Assembly: GCA_030697705.1 (NCBI GenBank)
Contig: JAUYPE010000017.1
Span: forward strand, 5,066-69,065
Length of the DNA: 64,000 bases
From: a bacterium
Lineage (GTDB): Bacteria > Patescibacteriota > Minisyncoccia > Sungbacterales > HO2-52-23
Reading direction: 5' to 3'
Notes under the pieces: model-generated
The model's database searches: none
Told to the model about the DNA's origin: nothing
The model's input: only the letters and a program-made list of their open reading frames with translations
Part shown: positions 19,544-63,764 of the stretch, in pieces
Layout: every line of letters begins with the position of its first letter
How positions within the stretch are numbered: the first letter of the stretch is position 1
Position numbers and translations under genes: made by a program

Positions 19544-20182
19544 TGCACGAAACGCAAAGACCCGAACTGTACTCAACCAGCCATAGAAGAAGATGAGCTT
19601 GAAAAGCAGATTGCCGCCGAGCTTGCCAAGCTGGAAATCCCCACTGATTTCAAGGATTGGGCTATGGCGCGCTTGCGTGATATGAATACGCAAGAGGTAT
19701 CAGACCGAGAACAGATTTGCGGTAACCAACGGCGCGAATACGATGCGTGCGTGCGCAAGGTCAATAATCTCATTGATATGCGAGCCAACGGCGAGATTGA
19801 CGAGGATGAGTTCAAAAACAGGAAGACCGCGCTTTTGGCAGAAAAGGCGCGGCTTCAAGAGTTTCTGAATGATACCGATAAGCGCGTGGACAACTGGCTT
19901 GAGATCGCCGCGCGCGGCTTTAATTTTGCGGAAAAAGCTCGTGGAGCGTTTGAAACGGGCGGCGCTGAGGTCAGGAAAGAGATTTTTGCCGCGTTAGGTT
20001 CGGACTTCCTGCTGAAAGACAGAAAATTAAGCATTTCACTGGATAATCTGCTGTTTCCGATACAAACTGCCGCAAAAGAAGCTCAAAACATTTCTACAAG
20101 GTTAGAACCTGCAAAAAACGCGATAGATAAAAAAGAAATCGGGCATTTATATGCCCGAAATCCTGTCATGCTCCGGCGGTAG
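19538..20182 (+). pseudogene. large serine recombinase C-terminal remnant (zinc-ribbon YYHC motif plus coiled-coil), catalytic domain missing
   Basis: YYHCTKRKDPNCTQPAIEEDELEKQIAAELAKLEIP and a long coiled-coil region match the C-terminal part of large serine recombinases. Nothing resolvase-like upstream. Ends overlapping the tRNA-Asn 3' end. Confidence 0.55.
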
Positions 20183-20208
20183 GATTCGAACCTACGACCC
20201 ACTGGTTA

Positions 20209-20748
20209 CATGTATTCCATTATTTCCATAATGGCATGGACTATATCTTTACCGTATGGTTTTGCCAATGCTCGCCATGTAGGTACTCTGGTATCTAGTC
20301 TCTACGGAGCTCCCCGCTAAAAGGCAGGGTTCCCACGGTATTACCCGTCTTTGTGTCAAAAAGATTTGGGCTTCACCGTTATCCCAGAGAGTTCACTCTT
20401 GGGTTTCCCCAGGAGGCTGCGCTATGCCTGCGTGTATCTCTCGGTGACAATTCGCGCATACGAGAACGCATTTATTGATTTCCTTTTTGATCTTTTCCCA
20501 ACTGCGCGTTACTCCGCGCACCGAGATACCGAAATCTTTTTTCTTTGGGTCAAGATGATGAAAATCGAGCGCTCCCGCATAGCGTTTATAGCCACAAAGC
20601 TGACATTTGTCGCCCTCGTATTCACGTGCCATTGTGCAAAGTTTATGTCTTCGCTCTGAAACAGCTTTTCGCAGATACTCGGCACGATCGGCATACGTTC
20701 TTTTATCTGGCATGCATGGTTAAGTATACCAGACTGGCGAACTCGTTC
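20209..20748 (-). other. group I intron (self-splicing) within tRNA-Asn, carrying an HNH endonuclease ORF
   Basis: 5' exon ends in U, intron ends in G (…acatg|taa). Conserved group I core elements: R-like gagactagatac and S-like aaagatatagtcc in the 3' part. Confidence 0.7.
20393..20713 (-). CDS. HNH homing endonuclease (intron-encoded)
   Basis: CQLCGYKRY..GALDFHHLDPKKKDF ... CANCHREIH, HNH with two Cys pairs. Same orientation as the tRNA, starts 35 nt inside the intron. Confidence 0.8.
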   Translation of the reverse strand: MPDKRTYADRAEYLRKAVSERRHKLCTMAREYEGDKCQLCGYKRYAGALDFHHLDPKKKDFGISVRGVTRSWEKIKKEINKCVLVCANCHREIHAGIAQPPGETQE

Positions 20749-47125: not shown

Positions 47126-47209
47126 GGGGATGTGGTGGAATCGGCAGACACGCAGCGTTCAGGGCGCTGTGAGCGCAAGCTCGTGGGAGTTCAACTCTCC
47201 CCATCCCCA
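47126..47209 (+). tRNA. tRNA-Leu(CAG), type II with long variable arm
   Basis: ggggatg tg gtg..cac g cagcg ttcaggg cgctg, variable hairpin gagcgcaagctc, T arm gggag ttcaact ctccc, then catcccc a. Anticodon CAG. Confidence 0.75.
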
Positions 47210-60533: not shown

Positions 60534-61196
60534 TCAATTTGATTTAATTTTTCTTTGTCTGCGAATAATGAAATATATTGTAACAATAGCAACTATGGCA
60601 ACCAACGACAAAACAATTTTCGATGACTTTTCTGTAAGTTCAACGCTGGGAGCACCACCCGGGCTTATTCCTTTCGAAGTAATACGAGATTTATCTACTA
60701 AGCAGCCGTCCAAGCTTGTATCAGGGTCATCTTTGCTAATAAGTTCGATAGGATTACCAAATGATTTACAGTTGAAGCCAGCAACGCTACCAGTCATCAT
60801 CGGAGACCAAAAACGATACTTTTCTCCAAATGACCATGCAAAAATAGATATGACATTTTCTTTATCAATGACGATGAGCACTTCCGCACCAACCGGCGGC
60901 CATTCTGCAGTAAGGCCTACTTTTTCGTCTTTTGGCGGCCACTCTACATGTATAAAACGACTTGGGTTCCATGTTGGGTCAGTTGAATACCCCGCAGATA
61001 AAATGTCAGTACTGCCCAATGGTTGGAATTTCAAAGCGTCGGTATCGTATGACACGATTTTCGCTGGCGTAATGATACTTGCCCCCTGCAATTCTTCAGC
61101 AAGATTAACAAGTAGGGATTCAGCGTTGGCTATCGTAAAAGCAAAAAATACGAAAGCAAGGAAAACAAATAAAGCAGTTGTAGTTTTAGGAATCAT
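60534..61196 (-). CDS. secreted protein with signal peptide and C-terminal TM anchor, hypothetical (inside the IR-flanked cassette)
   Basis: Start at MIPKTTTALFVFLAFVFFAFTIANA. C-terminal IVLSLVAIVAIVTIYFII + RRQRKIKSN. The overlapping plus-strand ORF 60481..61239 is an alternative. Confidence 0.4.
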   Translation of the reverse strand: MIPKTTTALFVFLAFVFFAFTIANAESLLVNLAEELQGASIITPAKIVSYDTDALKFQPLGSTDILSAGYSTDPTWNPSRFIHVEWPPKDEKVGLTAEWPPVGAEVLIVIDKENVISIFAWSFGEKYRFWSPMMTGSVAGFNCKSFGNPIELISKDDPDTSLDGCLVDKSRITSKGISPGGAPSVELTEKSSKIVLSLVAIVAIVTIYFIIRRQRKIKSN

Positions 61197-61376
61197 GGTT
61201 AAAAAACTTTCTTCCCTCAAAATTTCAACCAGAGGATGATCCGCCTTTGGCGGAAAAATATGGTTCCCTCCAGAGGCGGGCAGGCGAGCCGATGTTTTTC
61301 TCCGGGCTCCCGATTTGTCCAAGAGCGAAGCGATTGGTTACAAATCGCAGTCCTTTAGGGTTCTTTTGCGATTTTG

Positions 61377-61450
61377 ACCCAGTAGGTGAGCCCCTAGGAT
61401 GATTCTACTGAATCATCTGCCAAATCAGTGGTGCGGCTCCGCCGCCAGTC
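61377..61450. repeat. right arm of the about 75-bp inverted repeat
   Basis: See left arm. 23 nt upstream of the tRNA-Tyr 3' end. Confidence 0.7.
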
Positions 61451-61472
61451 AAAAACTCGATCAACGAGAATA

Positions 61473-61556
61473 TGGGTAGGGTGAGAGTTGAACTCACGAG
61501 GCCTATTAGACAGCAGATTTACAGTCTGCCCCCGCCCCCTACGGGTCTACCTACCC
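61473..61556 (-). tRNA. tRNA-Tyr(GTA), long variable arm
   Basis: Acceptor gggtagg / cctaccc. Anticodon arm gcaga ctgtaaa tctgc is identical to E. coli tRNA-Tyr. T arm gtgag ttcaact ctcac. Confidence 0.7.
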
Positions 61557-62341
61557 AGCTCATTCATAATCCATTCAAATCGTTCACCATGCTTGGGATT
61601 CTTCGGTTGTATTTCTTGAAAAAAACGAATAATTTCCGGACGCTTTGTTATATAAAACCTAAAACCGCTTATATGAGATGGGTGGTAATCTAAAAACTTA
61701 CACGCTCTGTGGATACCCTTCAAAAGCGGCAGTGACCTATTGGTAAACGATATCTGTACACCAAATCGCAACCGGTACACAGATCCGTCAGTGTCAAAGA
61801 AACCTCGCACCAAGCGCTCAAGGTACTGCGATTTCTCAAAGATCCATTCGGGAACGCTAACCTGCGCTCGTACTTTATTGTATACCAAACCTTCATCTTT
61901 CAGCCAATGACTGAGTGCTACGGATCCAACATAAACATTCTTATAACCTGTCTTTCGGATGCCTATTTTGGGAGCTACCCCAAAGAGTCCCTTCATGAGC
62001 CGAACGATATATTCCGCATATGCATACTCTTTTGTCCCCAGTGTTACAATAACTTGATAGAACGAGAGGTTGCCGTCCCCCAGCATAATCCCAAAGAATT
62101 CAGCAAGATCGGGTGAATAGGATTTTGGAATGATAATATCCTCGCGTCTTTTTGCGCTATACCCTTTTTTAAGGTACGGCGTTGATACAATGCCCAGTCG
62201 CTGTATTCTCTGAAATACGGTCTGCTCGGCGATACCAAGAATCTTGCCAACTTCTCTAATCGTTTTATTTTCAACGGTATAGAGACGGTTGAGTTCTTTT
62301 CTCATCTTTCCTTCTTCCCCATGAGTCCATCGCCGAGGCAT
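61547..62341 (-). CDS. LAGLIDADG homing endonuclease (double-motif) with N-terminal HTH domain
   Basis: Two LAGLIDADG motifs: FGIMLGDGNLS and RGFFDTDGSVY. N-terminal sigma-70-region-4-like HTH (TIREVGKILGIAEQTVFQRIQRL). Start at MPRRW. Last codons overlap the tRNA-Tyr 5' end (stop is the tRNA U8-A9-G10). Confidence 0.75.
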   Translation of the reverse strand: MPRRWTHGEEGKMRKELNRLYTVENKTIREVGKILGIAEQTVFQRIQRLGIVSTPYLKKGYSAKRREDIIIPKSYSPDLAEFFGIMLGDGNLSFYQVIVTLGTKEYAYAEYIVRLMKGLFGVAPKIGIRKTGYKNVYVGSVALSHWLKDEGLVYNKVRAQVSVPEWIFEKSQYLERLVRGFFDTDGSVYRLRFGVQISFTNRSLPLLKGIHRACKFLDYHPSHISGFRFYITKRPEIIRFFQEIQPKNPKHGERFEWIMNELGR

Positions 62342-62443
62342 GACACCATCGTAGCAAAACAAGCGTGATAAAGCAAGTTTTGCAATTGATGGCTCTACTA
62401 TGCTAGTAAAGACTTCAGACCAAGAACACTCCAATCTCATGAG

Positions 62444-62515
62444 AGCCGACCCCGAGAGTCGAACTCGGAACCTTCGCTTTACAAAAGCGTTGCTCTGCCA
62501 TTGAGCTAGGTCGGC
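62444..62515 (-). tRNA. tRNA-Thr(TGT)
   Basis: gccgacc ta gctc aatggca gagc a acgct tttgtaa agcga aggtt ccgag ttcgact ctcgg ggtcggc t. Confidence 0.7.
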
Positions 62516-63150
62516 ACCTGTTCATTCGTTTCTTTAACCACGCTATCATTCCTCTGCTGTTCAATTTTTATGCGGTGCGGGCGCGACGAGGATTGTTGTT
62601 GGCGCATACCTTCTTCCCATTTCGGTGCAATGTGAAGCGTCCGGTGACGGACGCGCACGGCATCGGGCGTGCGCACTTTATTCTGTTCATCTCTCAACGA
62701 CACTCGGTCCGTGGAGGATATCACCGGTACCGCTATGCGCACTTTTCCGCGGGGAACCAGAGGATCGCGGGTACGCGGTGCGCCATCCTGCCTTTCACGA
62801 AGGTGTCGCACATACTCCCCCATCCCGTTTGCTCCACTCGCAAACGCACCCGCGGAGCGAATCTTTTGCAGAAGCCGGACGAGCGCATTATCGAGACGAA
62901 GAATTAAAATATGGCTTTTCAGGATCATTTTACCGACAAGATGGAGAAAAAAATCACGATAGTGACGCCCACGCCAAAACGTGCGGAAATGCATCAAAAT
63001 AAGAAGGAAGCGCGCCGAATCCTCATGAAGACGCTCGGTAATTTCATGCTCCGAAAACACAACAAGCCGGGGCGCATATGCCCGAACGCTTCGCCAGAGA
63101 AGTACACCACTCGCCGCACACACGAACAACAAAAGAAGATCAAGGATCAT
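62506..63150 (-). CDS. hypothetical protein with N-terminal TM helix (uncertain)
   Basis: Long ORF with a plausible TM start, but high GC and several overlapping alternative ORFs. It ends inside tRNA-Thr. Confidence 0.3.
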   Translation of the reverse strand: MILDLLLLFVCAASGVLLWRSVRAYAPRLVVFSEHEITERLHEDSARFLLILMHFRTFWRGRHYRDFFLHLVGKMILKSHILILRLDNALVRLLQKIRSAGAFASGANGMGEYVRHLRERQDGAPRTRDPLVPRGKVRIAVPVISSTDRVSLRDEQNKVRTPDAVRVRHRTLHIAPKWEEGMRQQQSSSRPHRIKIEQQRNDSVVKETNEQVPT

Positions 63151-63179
63151 GATGCAAAGAAAAAGAACATAAGCTCCAT

Positions 63180-63764
63180 CTATACCTCAAAGCGGATAAA
63201 AGAGCCGATTTTAATATTCTCCCCGAACCGCCCGATCGCCTCATTGACAAACTCACCAACCGTTCTTTCCTGATCTTTCACAAACGGTTGCGTCATCAGC
63301 GAGAGGGCGCCGAAATGGCTTGCGAGCTTGCCGGTTATGATTTCAGCCACGATCGCGTCCGGTTTGTTCAGCTTTGCCGTCTCCTCCGCAAAACGATCTT
63401 TTTCCACACGCCGAATAGTGTCAGGAACCGCATCGGGAGTCAGATAGAGCGGATTCATCGCGGCGATGTGAAGCGCGATACTGTGAGCGAACTCACGGAA
63501 GGTAGGATTCCGTGCAACAAAATCCGTCTCGCAAAAAACTTCCACCATTGCGCCGACACGGCCGTTGGAGTGGATATAGGAATCGACAAGCCCCGCACCG
63601 GTCGCACGGCTTGCTTTTTTAATCGCGGCGCTCCCCAATTTGTGCTCAAGCCATGCAAACGCCTTCGCATGGTCACCCCCGGACTCTTCAAGCGCGCGCT
63701 TCACGTCCGAGATGCCCGCACCCGTGCGCTCCCGCAAATCCTTAATCTCCTGCGCTGAAATCAT
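63180..63764 (-). CDS. tsf: translation elongation factor Ts (short form)
   Basis: ISAQEIKDLRERTGAGISDVKRALEESGGD (UBA-like N-terminus) and EVNCETDFVARN-like core (EVFCETDFVARN). Confidence 0.9.
   Translation of the reverse strand: MISAQEIKDLRERTGAGISDVKRALEESGGDHAKAFAWLEHKLGSAAIKKASRATGAGLVDSYIHSNGRVGAMVEVFCETDFVARNPTFREFAHSIALHIAAMNPLYLTPDAVPDTIRRVEKDRFAEETAKLNKPDAIVAEIITGKLASHFGALSLMTQPFVKDQERTVGEFVNEAIGRFGENIKIGSFIRFEV

Follow-up and report, generated by a model that had tools for sequence, protein, structure and literature searches.

A putative free-standing LAGLIDADG homing-endonuclease cassette joined to the 5' end of tRNA-Tyr genes in Patescibacteria

In bacteria, LAGLIDADG genes are mostly located within group I introns or inteins, and the prevailing view is that homing endonucleases persist in conserved genes only when hidden in an intron or intein that splices itself out. 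WhiA, a transcription factor of Gram-positive bacteria which is, as far as is known, universally conserved in its lineages, also has a LAGLIDADG scaffold, together with a C-terminal helix-turn-helix (HTH) domain; WhiA and the maturases have lost the catalytic residues. Free-standing endonuclease genes have been described in T4-like phages, where they are mobile by break repair with co-conversion of the flanks, and one of them, SegB, is associated with tRNA genes (PMC2988022; PMC2790892). A survey of rRNA-gene insertions in the candidate phyla radiation (CPR) makes no mention of tRNA genes (PMC11270868), and our full-text literature search brought up no account of a LAGLIDADG gene directly adjoining tRNA-Tyr or tRNA-Ser in any bacterium, CPR and Omnitrophota included. 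Here we describe such a gene in a 64,000-nucleotide stretch of a patescibacterial contig (JAUYPE010000017.1, positions 5,066 to 69,065; hereafter the window), where it encodes an HTH-LAGLIDADG protein and overlaps the 5' end of a tRNA-Tyr gene. As judged from sequence comparison, it is probably an active or recently active free-standing LAGLIDADG homing-endonuclease cassette in the 5' end of a single-copy-type tRNA-Tyr gene, made harmless by RNase P processing.

All parts of the locus are on the minus strand. ARAGORN and Rfam both call an intact tRNA-Tyr(GUA) without an encoded CCA at 61473-61556 (Rfam, 38.7 bits against a cut-off of 29; ARAGORN limits 61557-61472) and, as the upstream neighbour, a tRNA-Thr(UGU) at 62444-62515 (64.4 bits against the same cut-off; ARAGORN limits 62515-62443). 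The space between the two tRNA genes is occupied by a single open reading frame (ORF) on the same strand, which has 264 codons plus TAG (61547-62341) and is supported by the ORF list, its homologues, the Pfam family PF14528, an AlphaFold2 (AF2) model and Foldseek. An earlier note on this DNA, made from the letters alone, had placed the ORF between two apparently intact tRNA genes of the same strand and its stop codon on U8-A9-G10 of tRNA-Tyr, and we confirmed both points: the TAG lies at 61549-61547, and in the overlap (61547-61556) the first 10 nt of tRNA-Tyr also serve as the final codons and stop codon of the ORF. The start is the ATG at 62341, which is M34 of the longest ORF (297 aa, from 62440), and all homologues start with MARRWT; the 297-aa frame thus reads as an in-frame upstream extension of the 264-aa gene, and the NCBI call of 252 aa (start M46) is probably too short. 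An Rfam search of 60800-63200 with E-values up to 10, the check for an intron which the earlier note had proposed, recovered only the two tRNAs and no intron-like RNA. No flanking direct or inverted repeats were found beyond the chance level of 10-12 nt, nor any terminator-like site between the genes on the strand of the gene, nor any integrase or transposase among the nearby ORFs.

The protein matches LAGLIDADG_3 (PF14528; E 1.7e-10, 41.4 bits against a cut-off of 22.5). Its first motif, LAEFFGIMLGDGN (residues 79-91; 62069-62107), reads GIMLGDGN and contains the catalytic D89, and the second, LVRGFFDTDGS (residues 177-187; 61781-61813), contains the catalytic D185 in an invariant DTDG. Both aspartates, in GDG and DTDG, are invariant in alignments of 25 and 44 sequences, and a symmetric pair of glutamines, Q96 and Q196, one in each half, is invariant among the aligned homologues. 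The active site looks intact by sequence, and the degeneration of both motifs which had been considered beforehand was not seen. An N-terminal three-helix HTH domain (residues 7-48; 62198-62323) is predicted by the AF2 model, with helices at 7-23, 28-35 and 39-48, and by sub-threshold Pfam HTH matches (Sigma70_r4_2, HTH_23 and similar; residues 53-81 of the 297-aa ORF); in the homologue alignment it opens with a conserved RRWTxxEE, in which W5 is invariant. The free-standing double-motif protein with an N-terminal HTH described at first is therefore borne out; the likeness of this HTH to sigma-70 region 4 reaches only a sub-threshold Pfam match. WhiA_N is matched at E 0.009 (16.5 bits, under the cut-off of 23.4). 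The AF2 model (44 homologues; pLDDT 93.1, pTM 0.81) consists of the three-helix domain, a linker and two alpha-beta-beta-alpha-beta-beta-alpha domains. In the PDB, Foldseek matched it to the TliVMA intein endonuclease and I-Tsp061I (E 3.9e-11 to 7.5e-10) and to I-DmoI and I-SceI (E about 1e-6), with WhiA also among the matches. By profile, motifs and predicted fold, the protein is classed as a putative monomeric two-motif LAGLIDADG homing endonuclease.

Relatives of the protein are numerous. A word-indexed protein search gave at least 565 with 50-63% identity, all from metagenome-assembled genomes of Patescibacteria, and PF14528 is present in every homologue listed by that search; a profile search of 1.84 billion cluster representatives gave 321 matches at E <=1e-30. 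The feature accordingly belongs to a family with hundreds of members, and a related family is found next to tRNA-Ser in a different phylum (see below); the rarity of free-standing LAGLIDADG genes stressed in the earlier note does not hold for it. Two database entries of the family bear a WhiA label from JGI. A scan with one genome per species found relatives in 180 Patescibacteria genomes, and 80 of these loci were fetched for comparison (loci are numbered with L). In 78 of the 80, tRNA-Tyr(GUA) follows immediately 3' on the same strand, and the remaining two contigs end right after the ORF. Only about 12 of the 80 have a tRNA-Thr(UGU) upstream; this tRNA is incidental to the element, and tRNA-Tyr alone is the conserved partner. 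The proposal of homing into a tRNA cluster should accordingly be divided, since homing is better supported than a regulatory role and the cluster is reduced to tRNA-Tyr. The commonest upstream neighbour is clpB (42/81 loci).

The overlap with tRNA-Tyr is also a family feature. Of 76 loci, 63 have the stop codon within the tRNA and 13 have gaps of 1-9 nt, and a conserved C-terminal KH motif is found at a median of 35 nt before tRNA position +1. Because the stop codon sits inside tRNA-Tyr, many database proteins of the family (e.g. P0008, P0043, P0046 and P0097) end in translated tRNA-Tyr, with tails such as SDSGYSR and VGTQVVNEGRL*, the stop of the latter being U35-A36-A37 in the anticodon loop. 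Start codons are called inconsistently in the database entries; these and the tRNA-translated tails are a systematic annotation artefact. The family was not found on viral contigs, where just two distant relatives (23-26% identity) were seen, and a phage origin was rejected on this ground.

Upstream of the ORF, a second piece of tRNA-Tyr is recognizable. In the window, a decayed D-arm remnant, GTAGAGCCATCAATTGCAA (about tRNA positions 10-27; 62380-62398), matches the family consensus tAGAGTGGTCAATTGCAA. Across the family, 41 of 76 loci have the motif AG[CT][GA]GT[CT]AA at a distance of 20-70 nt before the start, a 51-nt window in which 0.002 occurrences are expected; elsewhere it was found 29 times inside tRNA genes and just 17 times in the remaining 432 kb, and we read it as a D-loop motif. 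The stumps of L021, L039 and L057 have 25-27 nt and are unmistakably equal to tRNA-Tyr positions 1-26, and that of L057, GCGTCGGTACTCAAGCGGTCAACGA, is identical to the L008-type tRNA; L057 also has a chimeric tRNA in which a type-A body carries a type-B T-loop. What is left of the stump at most other loci is the D-arm consensus, whose TTGCAA lies at a -35-like place, the acceptor part being decayed. The stump is usually of another D-arm type than the live downstream tRNA-Tyr; the stump-type D-arm GCAGAGCGGTCAATTGC is that of the L016-type tRNA-Tyr. In the clade of the window (the window, L002, L004, L005 and L021), the live tRNA-Tyr has an unusual G-rich D-arm, UAGACCCGUAGGGGGCGGGGG, which still passes ARAGORN and Rfam and is strongly unlike the upstream stump D-arm and the other Patescibacteria tRNA-Tyr types.

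The stump is followed by promoter-like signals, all of which are consensus matches. In the window, they extend over 62348-62376 and comprise TTGCTT (62376-62371) and the extended -10 TGCTACGAT (62356-62348). The spacer has 17 nt, counting the TGC of the extended -10 as its final 3 nt; the extended -10 ends 6 nt before the ATG, and a leaderless mRNA is therefore predicted. Of 76 loci, 67 have a TANNNT whose end is 4-9 nt ahead of the start and 37 have TGnTAnnnT, where ORF interiors give an expectation of about 1%. Just before the live tRNA-Tyr or in the 3' end of the ORF, a promoter-like site was found in only 1 of 77 filled loci; several empty sites (L129, L139 and L152) have TATACT about 16-19 nt before tRNA +1. 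In the simplest reading, the cassette would occupy what was once a tRNA-Tyr gene, with the break after about position 26, would end in a replacement 5' segment restoring the tRNA-Tyr gene, and would now drive the transcription of that gene. Alternatively, the insertion may have been into the first copy of a tandem tRNA-Tyr pair. A cassette carrying a whole tRNA was also considered and rejected, since a leftover tRNA-Tyr 3' fragment would be expected downstream of the live tRNA and none was found there. Given the tRNA-Tyr scar upstream of the ORF and the cassette's own promoter, the cassette is placed in the 5' end of tRNA-Tyr and not in a spacer.

All of the 81 ORFs are intact and full length. 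DTDG is matched in every one of them and motif 1 in the strict form G[IV][ML]xGDG in 79, the other two missing only the strict pattern. dN/dS is 0.05-0.23 (Nei-Gojobori; 39 of 41 close pairs with estimable dS), which together with the full length of all ORFs indicates that the protein is under purifying selection.

The gene is, at the same time, absent from many comparable sites. A metagenome scan by one tRNA-Tyr D-arm pattern gave 120 loci, mostly from other phyla (acceptor stem GGAGGGG), with the Patescibacteria-type acceptor stem GCGTCGG in 23 of them; among the latter, the loci with enough upstream sequence comprised one filled (L167) and about 12 empty, a ratio that is rough for so small a sample. 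No ORF remnant was detected in the approximately 12 empty loci by the family hidden Markov model on six-frame translations. One empty locus, L152, has 43 nt where L063 and L060 have 837 nt; all three have a divergent parB-like gene upstream, their tRNA-Tyr genes are 96% identical, and the genes that follow downstream are shared as well. The L152 tRNA-Tyr sequence recurs in the ORF-bearing locus L167. L152 and the other empty loci therefore show that the gene is dispensable and patchily distributed. A comparison of the tRNA-Tyr/Thr spacer among relatives had been proposed beforehand; presence and absence were indeed found, but at the 5' end of tRNA-Tyr. In the window's own clade, an empty site sought via the EF-Ts neighbours was not found: the contig of the closest relative (87% in EF-Ts) ends before the tRNAs, and the next (67%) has tRNA-Thr, with tRNA-Tyr elsewhere.

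We also compared the identity of the homing endonuclease gene (HEG) product with that of the adjacent ClpB. The two are weakly correlated (Spearman 0.12, Mantel p 0.08), with distances that are largely saturated and with outliers such as L078. At a ClpB identity of 82-85%, the HEG identity is 46-51% (L078 vs L019, L013 and L023) or 81-83% (L033 vs L013, L017 and L023). This mismatch suggests exchange and, with saturated distances, is no proof of it; taken as a test for horizontal transfer, the correlations among HEG, ClpB and tRNA distances were weak and no more than suggestive. With the variable arm left out, tRNA-Tyr has a mean pairwise identity of 0.69 in 19 loci where tRNA-Trp has 0.68, and in 13 loci its identity is 0.62, lower than the 0.73 of tRNA-Thr; with this mixed result, we do not claim that tRNA-Tyr has evolved faster, as an arms race would suggest.

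Other endonuclease genes occupy the same slot in other metagenome contigs, adjoining the tRNA-Tyr 5' end on the same strand. L112 has a frameshifted gene for a PD-(D/E)XK endonuclease of the I-Ssp6803I type (PF11645; E 3.8e-13 after joining two frames), and L191 has an ORF which we read as HNH-like from its Cys/His motifs, Pfam giving no match. At L160, L102 and L135, the slot is taken by ORFs of about 203 aa that combine an HTH with one LAGLIDADG-like motif, GEG; Pfam gives HTH matches only for these, and their LAGLIDADG nature rests on the GEG motif and one hhalign match to the family (E 6e-5, probability 65%). The clpB-type gene upstream at L160 is also found at loci with the two-motif family. 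Several unrelated endonuclease genes at one site is the pattern of a homing site and is hard to fit to a dedicated host regulator.

Some further observations concern this slot. At L110 (Ga0172375_10084402), a 323-aa ORF with a faint match to PF00579 (class I Trp/Tyr tRNA synthetases, E 0.037) ends 3 nt before tRNA-Tyr. At L102 (Ga0209211_10018928, about 2712-2800), which has the 203-aa HTH and single-LAGLIDADG-like ORF adjoining tRNA-Tyr and a tRNA-Thr(UGU) upstream, an insert appears to split the tRNA-Tyr immediately 3' of the anticodon (...GGCAGACTGT|GAAAGATTGCAGC...), so that two different selfish elements would be present on one tRNA gene. The L102 insert contains GAACTCTCTGGGATAACGGTG, a string also found at about 20390 in a group I intron-like element of the window. 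This element (20160-20560, minus strand) has an intron-like match at 20217-20487 (36.5 bits, under the cut-off of 50; E 1e-5), directly upstream an ORF read as HNH-like (...CANCHREIHAG...) and directly downstream a tRNA 3' half (GGTTCGAATCC...CGCCGGAGCA). This tRNA was not called by ARAGORN, and the element is probably the tRNA-Asn intron of the earlier note.

The profile search also recovered proteins of about 335-350 aa from Omnitrophota, which match the LAGLIDADG core (E about 1e-35 to 1e-49), have a longer HTH-bearing N-terminus and conserve the GDG, DTDG and KH motifs. In all seven long contigs (L209-L215), a tRNA-Ser gene lies on the same strand at the 3' end of the ORF, which stops anywhere from 39 nt within this gene to 9 nt short of it. 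At L211, L213 and L214, the order is tRNA-Ser(UGA), ORF and tRNA-Ser(CGA), downstream of serS, and at the other four loci it is a tadA-like deaminase gene, ORF and tRNA-Ser(GCU); the start of the ORF overlaps the tadA-like stop by 4 nt at L209, 4 nt at L210 and 14 nt at L215, and a gap of 81 nt separates them at L212. tRNA-Tyr and tRNA-Ser are both class II (long-arm) tRNAs in bacteria; with two tRNA types only, this may be a coincidence.

The reading which we prefer, a probable homing-endonuclease cassette in the tRNA-Tyr 5' end, draws on the anatomy of the locus, the family-wide linkage to tRNA-Tyr, an active site intact by sequence, purifying selection, dispensability, the hot-spot site, the tRNA stump and the promoter-like signals. 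We propose that such a cassette would work as follows. The enzyme would cut cassette-free tRNA-Tyr alleles at a recognition sequence in the conserved 5' part (the D-arm region), which the HTH would extend, and repair of the break from a cassette-bearing copy would copy the cassette in. Because the cassette would end in, or rebuild, the tRNA 5' segment, the tRNA gene would not be inactivated, which would account for the intact tRNA gene found after the ORF. RNase P would cut the tRNA out of the ORF-tRNA transcript, and tRNA processing would thus replace self-splicing. The tRNA, whose own promoter is lost according to the consensus scan, would be read from the cassette promoter. Where the stop lies inside the mature tRNA, as in most family members, RNase P cleavage would leave a non-stop mRNA, and this, together with leaderless translation, would keep the endonuclease at low levels. 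Finally, the D-arm stump at the promoter may act as an operator for autorepression. I-TevI has been reported to be a homing enzyme and also an autorepressor, which binds an operator resembling its homing site at its own promoter, and a dual role of the present protein, as homing enzyme and autorepressor, is possible.

Several points weigh against this reading. Cleavage, the target site and a homing event go beyond the anatomy, and we infer them from sequence. A target wholly within the tRNA would persist in the downstream intact tRNA-Tyr; immunity would therefore need a target spanning the junction of leader and tRNA, or a recoded D-arm, and at some loci (e.g. L016) the D-arms of the stump and the live tRNA are similar. 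The classical homing cycle predicts many degenerate copies, although none was seen with search patterns that favoured intact copies. The flanks of L152 and of L063/L060 are only about 75% identical, so that they show gain or loss without giving its direction, and with saturated distances the test of incongruence between HEG and ClpB has little power. tRNA-Tyr is not faster-evolving than tRNA-Trp in the same loci. The absence of the family from viral contigs leaves it with no known vector. In Omnitrophota, the 4-nt overlap of the sister gene with tadA in a conserved synteny looks host-integrated.

This last point, with the translational coupling to tadA in three or four loci, would suit the strongest of the rival explanations, which the earlier note had already raised: a domesticated LAGLIDADG/HTH DNA-binding protein, that is, a WhiA-like host regulator of the tRNA-Tyr unit or of its own promoter, vertically inherited and immobile. 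We regard it as unlikely. WhiA is among the Foldseek matches and in the two JGI labels, but the WhiA_N match is below its cut-off, the HTH is N-terminal and not C-terminal, and both catalytic Asp residues and the paired Gln are invariant. Intact copies throughout, low dN/dS and a position fixed across deeply diverged lineages would be expected of a host gene too, yet the gene is missing from syntenic relatives and from most of the sampled Patescibacteria-type tRNA-Tyr loci (a small sample obtained with one D-arm pattern), and its identity only weakly tracks that of the host marker ClpB. The conserved D-arm-like element overlapping the gene's own promoter is a possible operator for such a regulator, and the unrelated endonuclease genes in the same slot are difficult to reconcile with it. 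A regulator thus stays as a rival, disfavoured by the retained active site, the empty sites and the other endonucleases.

It is far less probable that the gene is a decaying relic, once mobile and now functionless, trapped by its overlap with an essential tRNA of which it is the sole promoter supply. The overlap and the lack of a promoter-like site before the tRNA would make a clean deletion difficult, and the upstream stump has decayed in most loci, but a relic should show stops, frameshifts and a dN/dS near 1, against 81 intact ORFs of 81, an invariant active site and a dN/dS of about 0.1-0.2, and the clean empty sites indicate that deletion or non-insertion is possible; the selection data largely refute it. 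That the endonuclease is encoded by an intron or intein, as is the general rule for bacterial LAGLIDADG genes, or belongs to a transposon or integrative island, is very improbable in spite of the richness of CPR rRNA genes in such insertions (PMC11270868) and the group I intron-like element at 20217-20487, since Rfam matched no intron family to 60800-63200 with E-values as high as 10, complete tRNAs stand on both sides of the ORF, no host protein encloses it, and neither terminal inverted or direct repeats nor an integrase or transposase were found nearby.

Two observations on the surroundings are added here. Rfam scans of the whole window (gathering threshold and E-value mode) missed both long-arm tRNAs which ARAGORN calls, tRNA-Leu at 47126-47209 (plus strand) and tRNA-Tyr at 61473-61556 (minus strand). 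tRNA-Tyr reached its 38.7 bits when a shorter stretch was searched, and this filter effect matters for tRNA counts based on Rfam only. Between tsf and tRNA-Thr, a 214-aa ORF (62506-63150, minus strand) overlaps the 5' end of tRNA-Thr by 10 nt; a 213-aa counterpart is found in L204, the contig of the closest relative, with no Pfam entry on record for the relative, and the ORF is probably a real gene.

Returning to the cassette, we tentatively put forward, as a possibility well short of the probability of the cassette itself, that it represents a mobile-element class of its own, found in ultra-small bacteria. Such tRNA-abutting homing-endonuclease cassettes would break a tRNA gene of class II, namely tRNA-Tyr in Patescibacteria and tRNA-Ser in Omnitrophota, heal it with a replacement 5' segment, take over its transcription by a leaderless-mRNA promoter, be harmless via RNase P and not splicing, and have their dosage throttled by removal of the stop codon; a recoded D-arm, such as that of the window's tRNA-Tyr, would be the determinant of immunity and the stump the operator for autorepression. 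If this is true, there would be a third solution beside introns and inteins, in which the element sits at the 5' edge of a tRNA gene, is removed from the transcript by the host RNase P, and carries the tRNA piece that it displaced. It would explain the single position of the family in at least 78 fetched genomes (with relatives in 180 species genomes), the crowding of unrelated endonuclease families in the slot and the sister family at tRNA-Ser in another phylum. For uncultured organisms, it predicts that the mRNA is leaderless, that the tRNA depends on the promoter of a selfish element and that tRNA processing gives rise to a non-stop mRNA. The family also offers several hundred natural, diverse and compact (about 260 aa) candidate meganucleases with an accessory HTH and inferable targets, and it draws attention to a problem of annotation, namely ORFs called through tRNA genes.

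The closest enzymes by structure, I-DmoI, I-Tsp061I and archaeal intein domains (TliVMA, PI-PfuI), have in common with the window protein the fold, the two LAGLIDADG helices, a catalytic acidic residue in each motif and the core size. They are, however, inside self-splicing introns or inteins, whereas the window protein is free-standing, has an extra N-terminal HTH and lies head-to-tail with a tRNA gene, and tRNA 5' processing instead of splicing would keep the host gene working. The endonucleases of T4-like phages (SegB in the T4 tRNA gene cluster; mobE) are likewise free-standing between genes, but they belong to the GIY-YIG and HNH families and to phage genomes, whereas the present family is LAGLIDADG, chromosomal and not on viral contigs; an overlap of ORF and tRNA, a tRNA stump and a takeover of the tRNA promoter are not described for them. 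WhiA combines a LAGLIDADG scaffold and an HTH as the window protein does, and the latter differs in its active site, intact by sequence, its N-terminal HTH, its patchy distribution and a WhiA_N match under the cut-off. LAGLIDADG insertions and group I introns in CPR rRNA genes (PMC11270868; PMC11809585) share the phylum, the enzyme superfamily and the logic of targeting a conserved RNA gene, but they lie inside the rRNA genes and are removed as introns or spacers, whereas the window family has its own promoter and an HTH and adjoins tRNA-Tyr. Finally, islands and phages that integrate into tRNA genes also leave a partial tRNA copy on one side of the insert and an intact tRNA on the other. These use integrases, the 3' part of the tRNA and att repeats, whereas the window cassette, with no integrase, is flanked by a duplicate of the 5' part (positions 1 to about 26) and consists of a single endonuclease gene.

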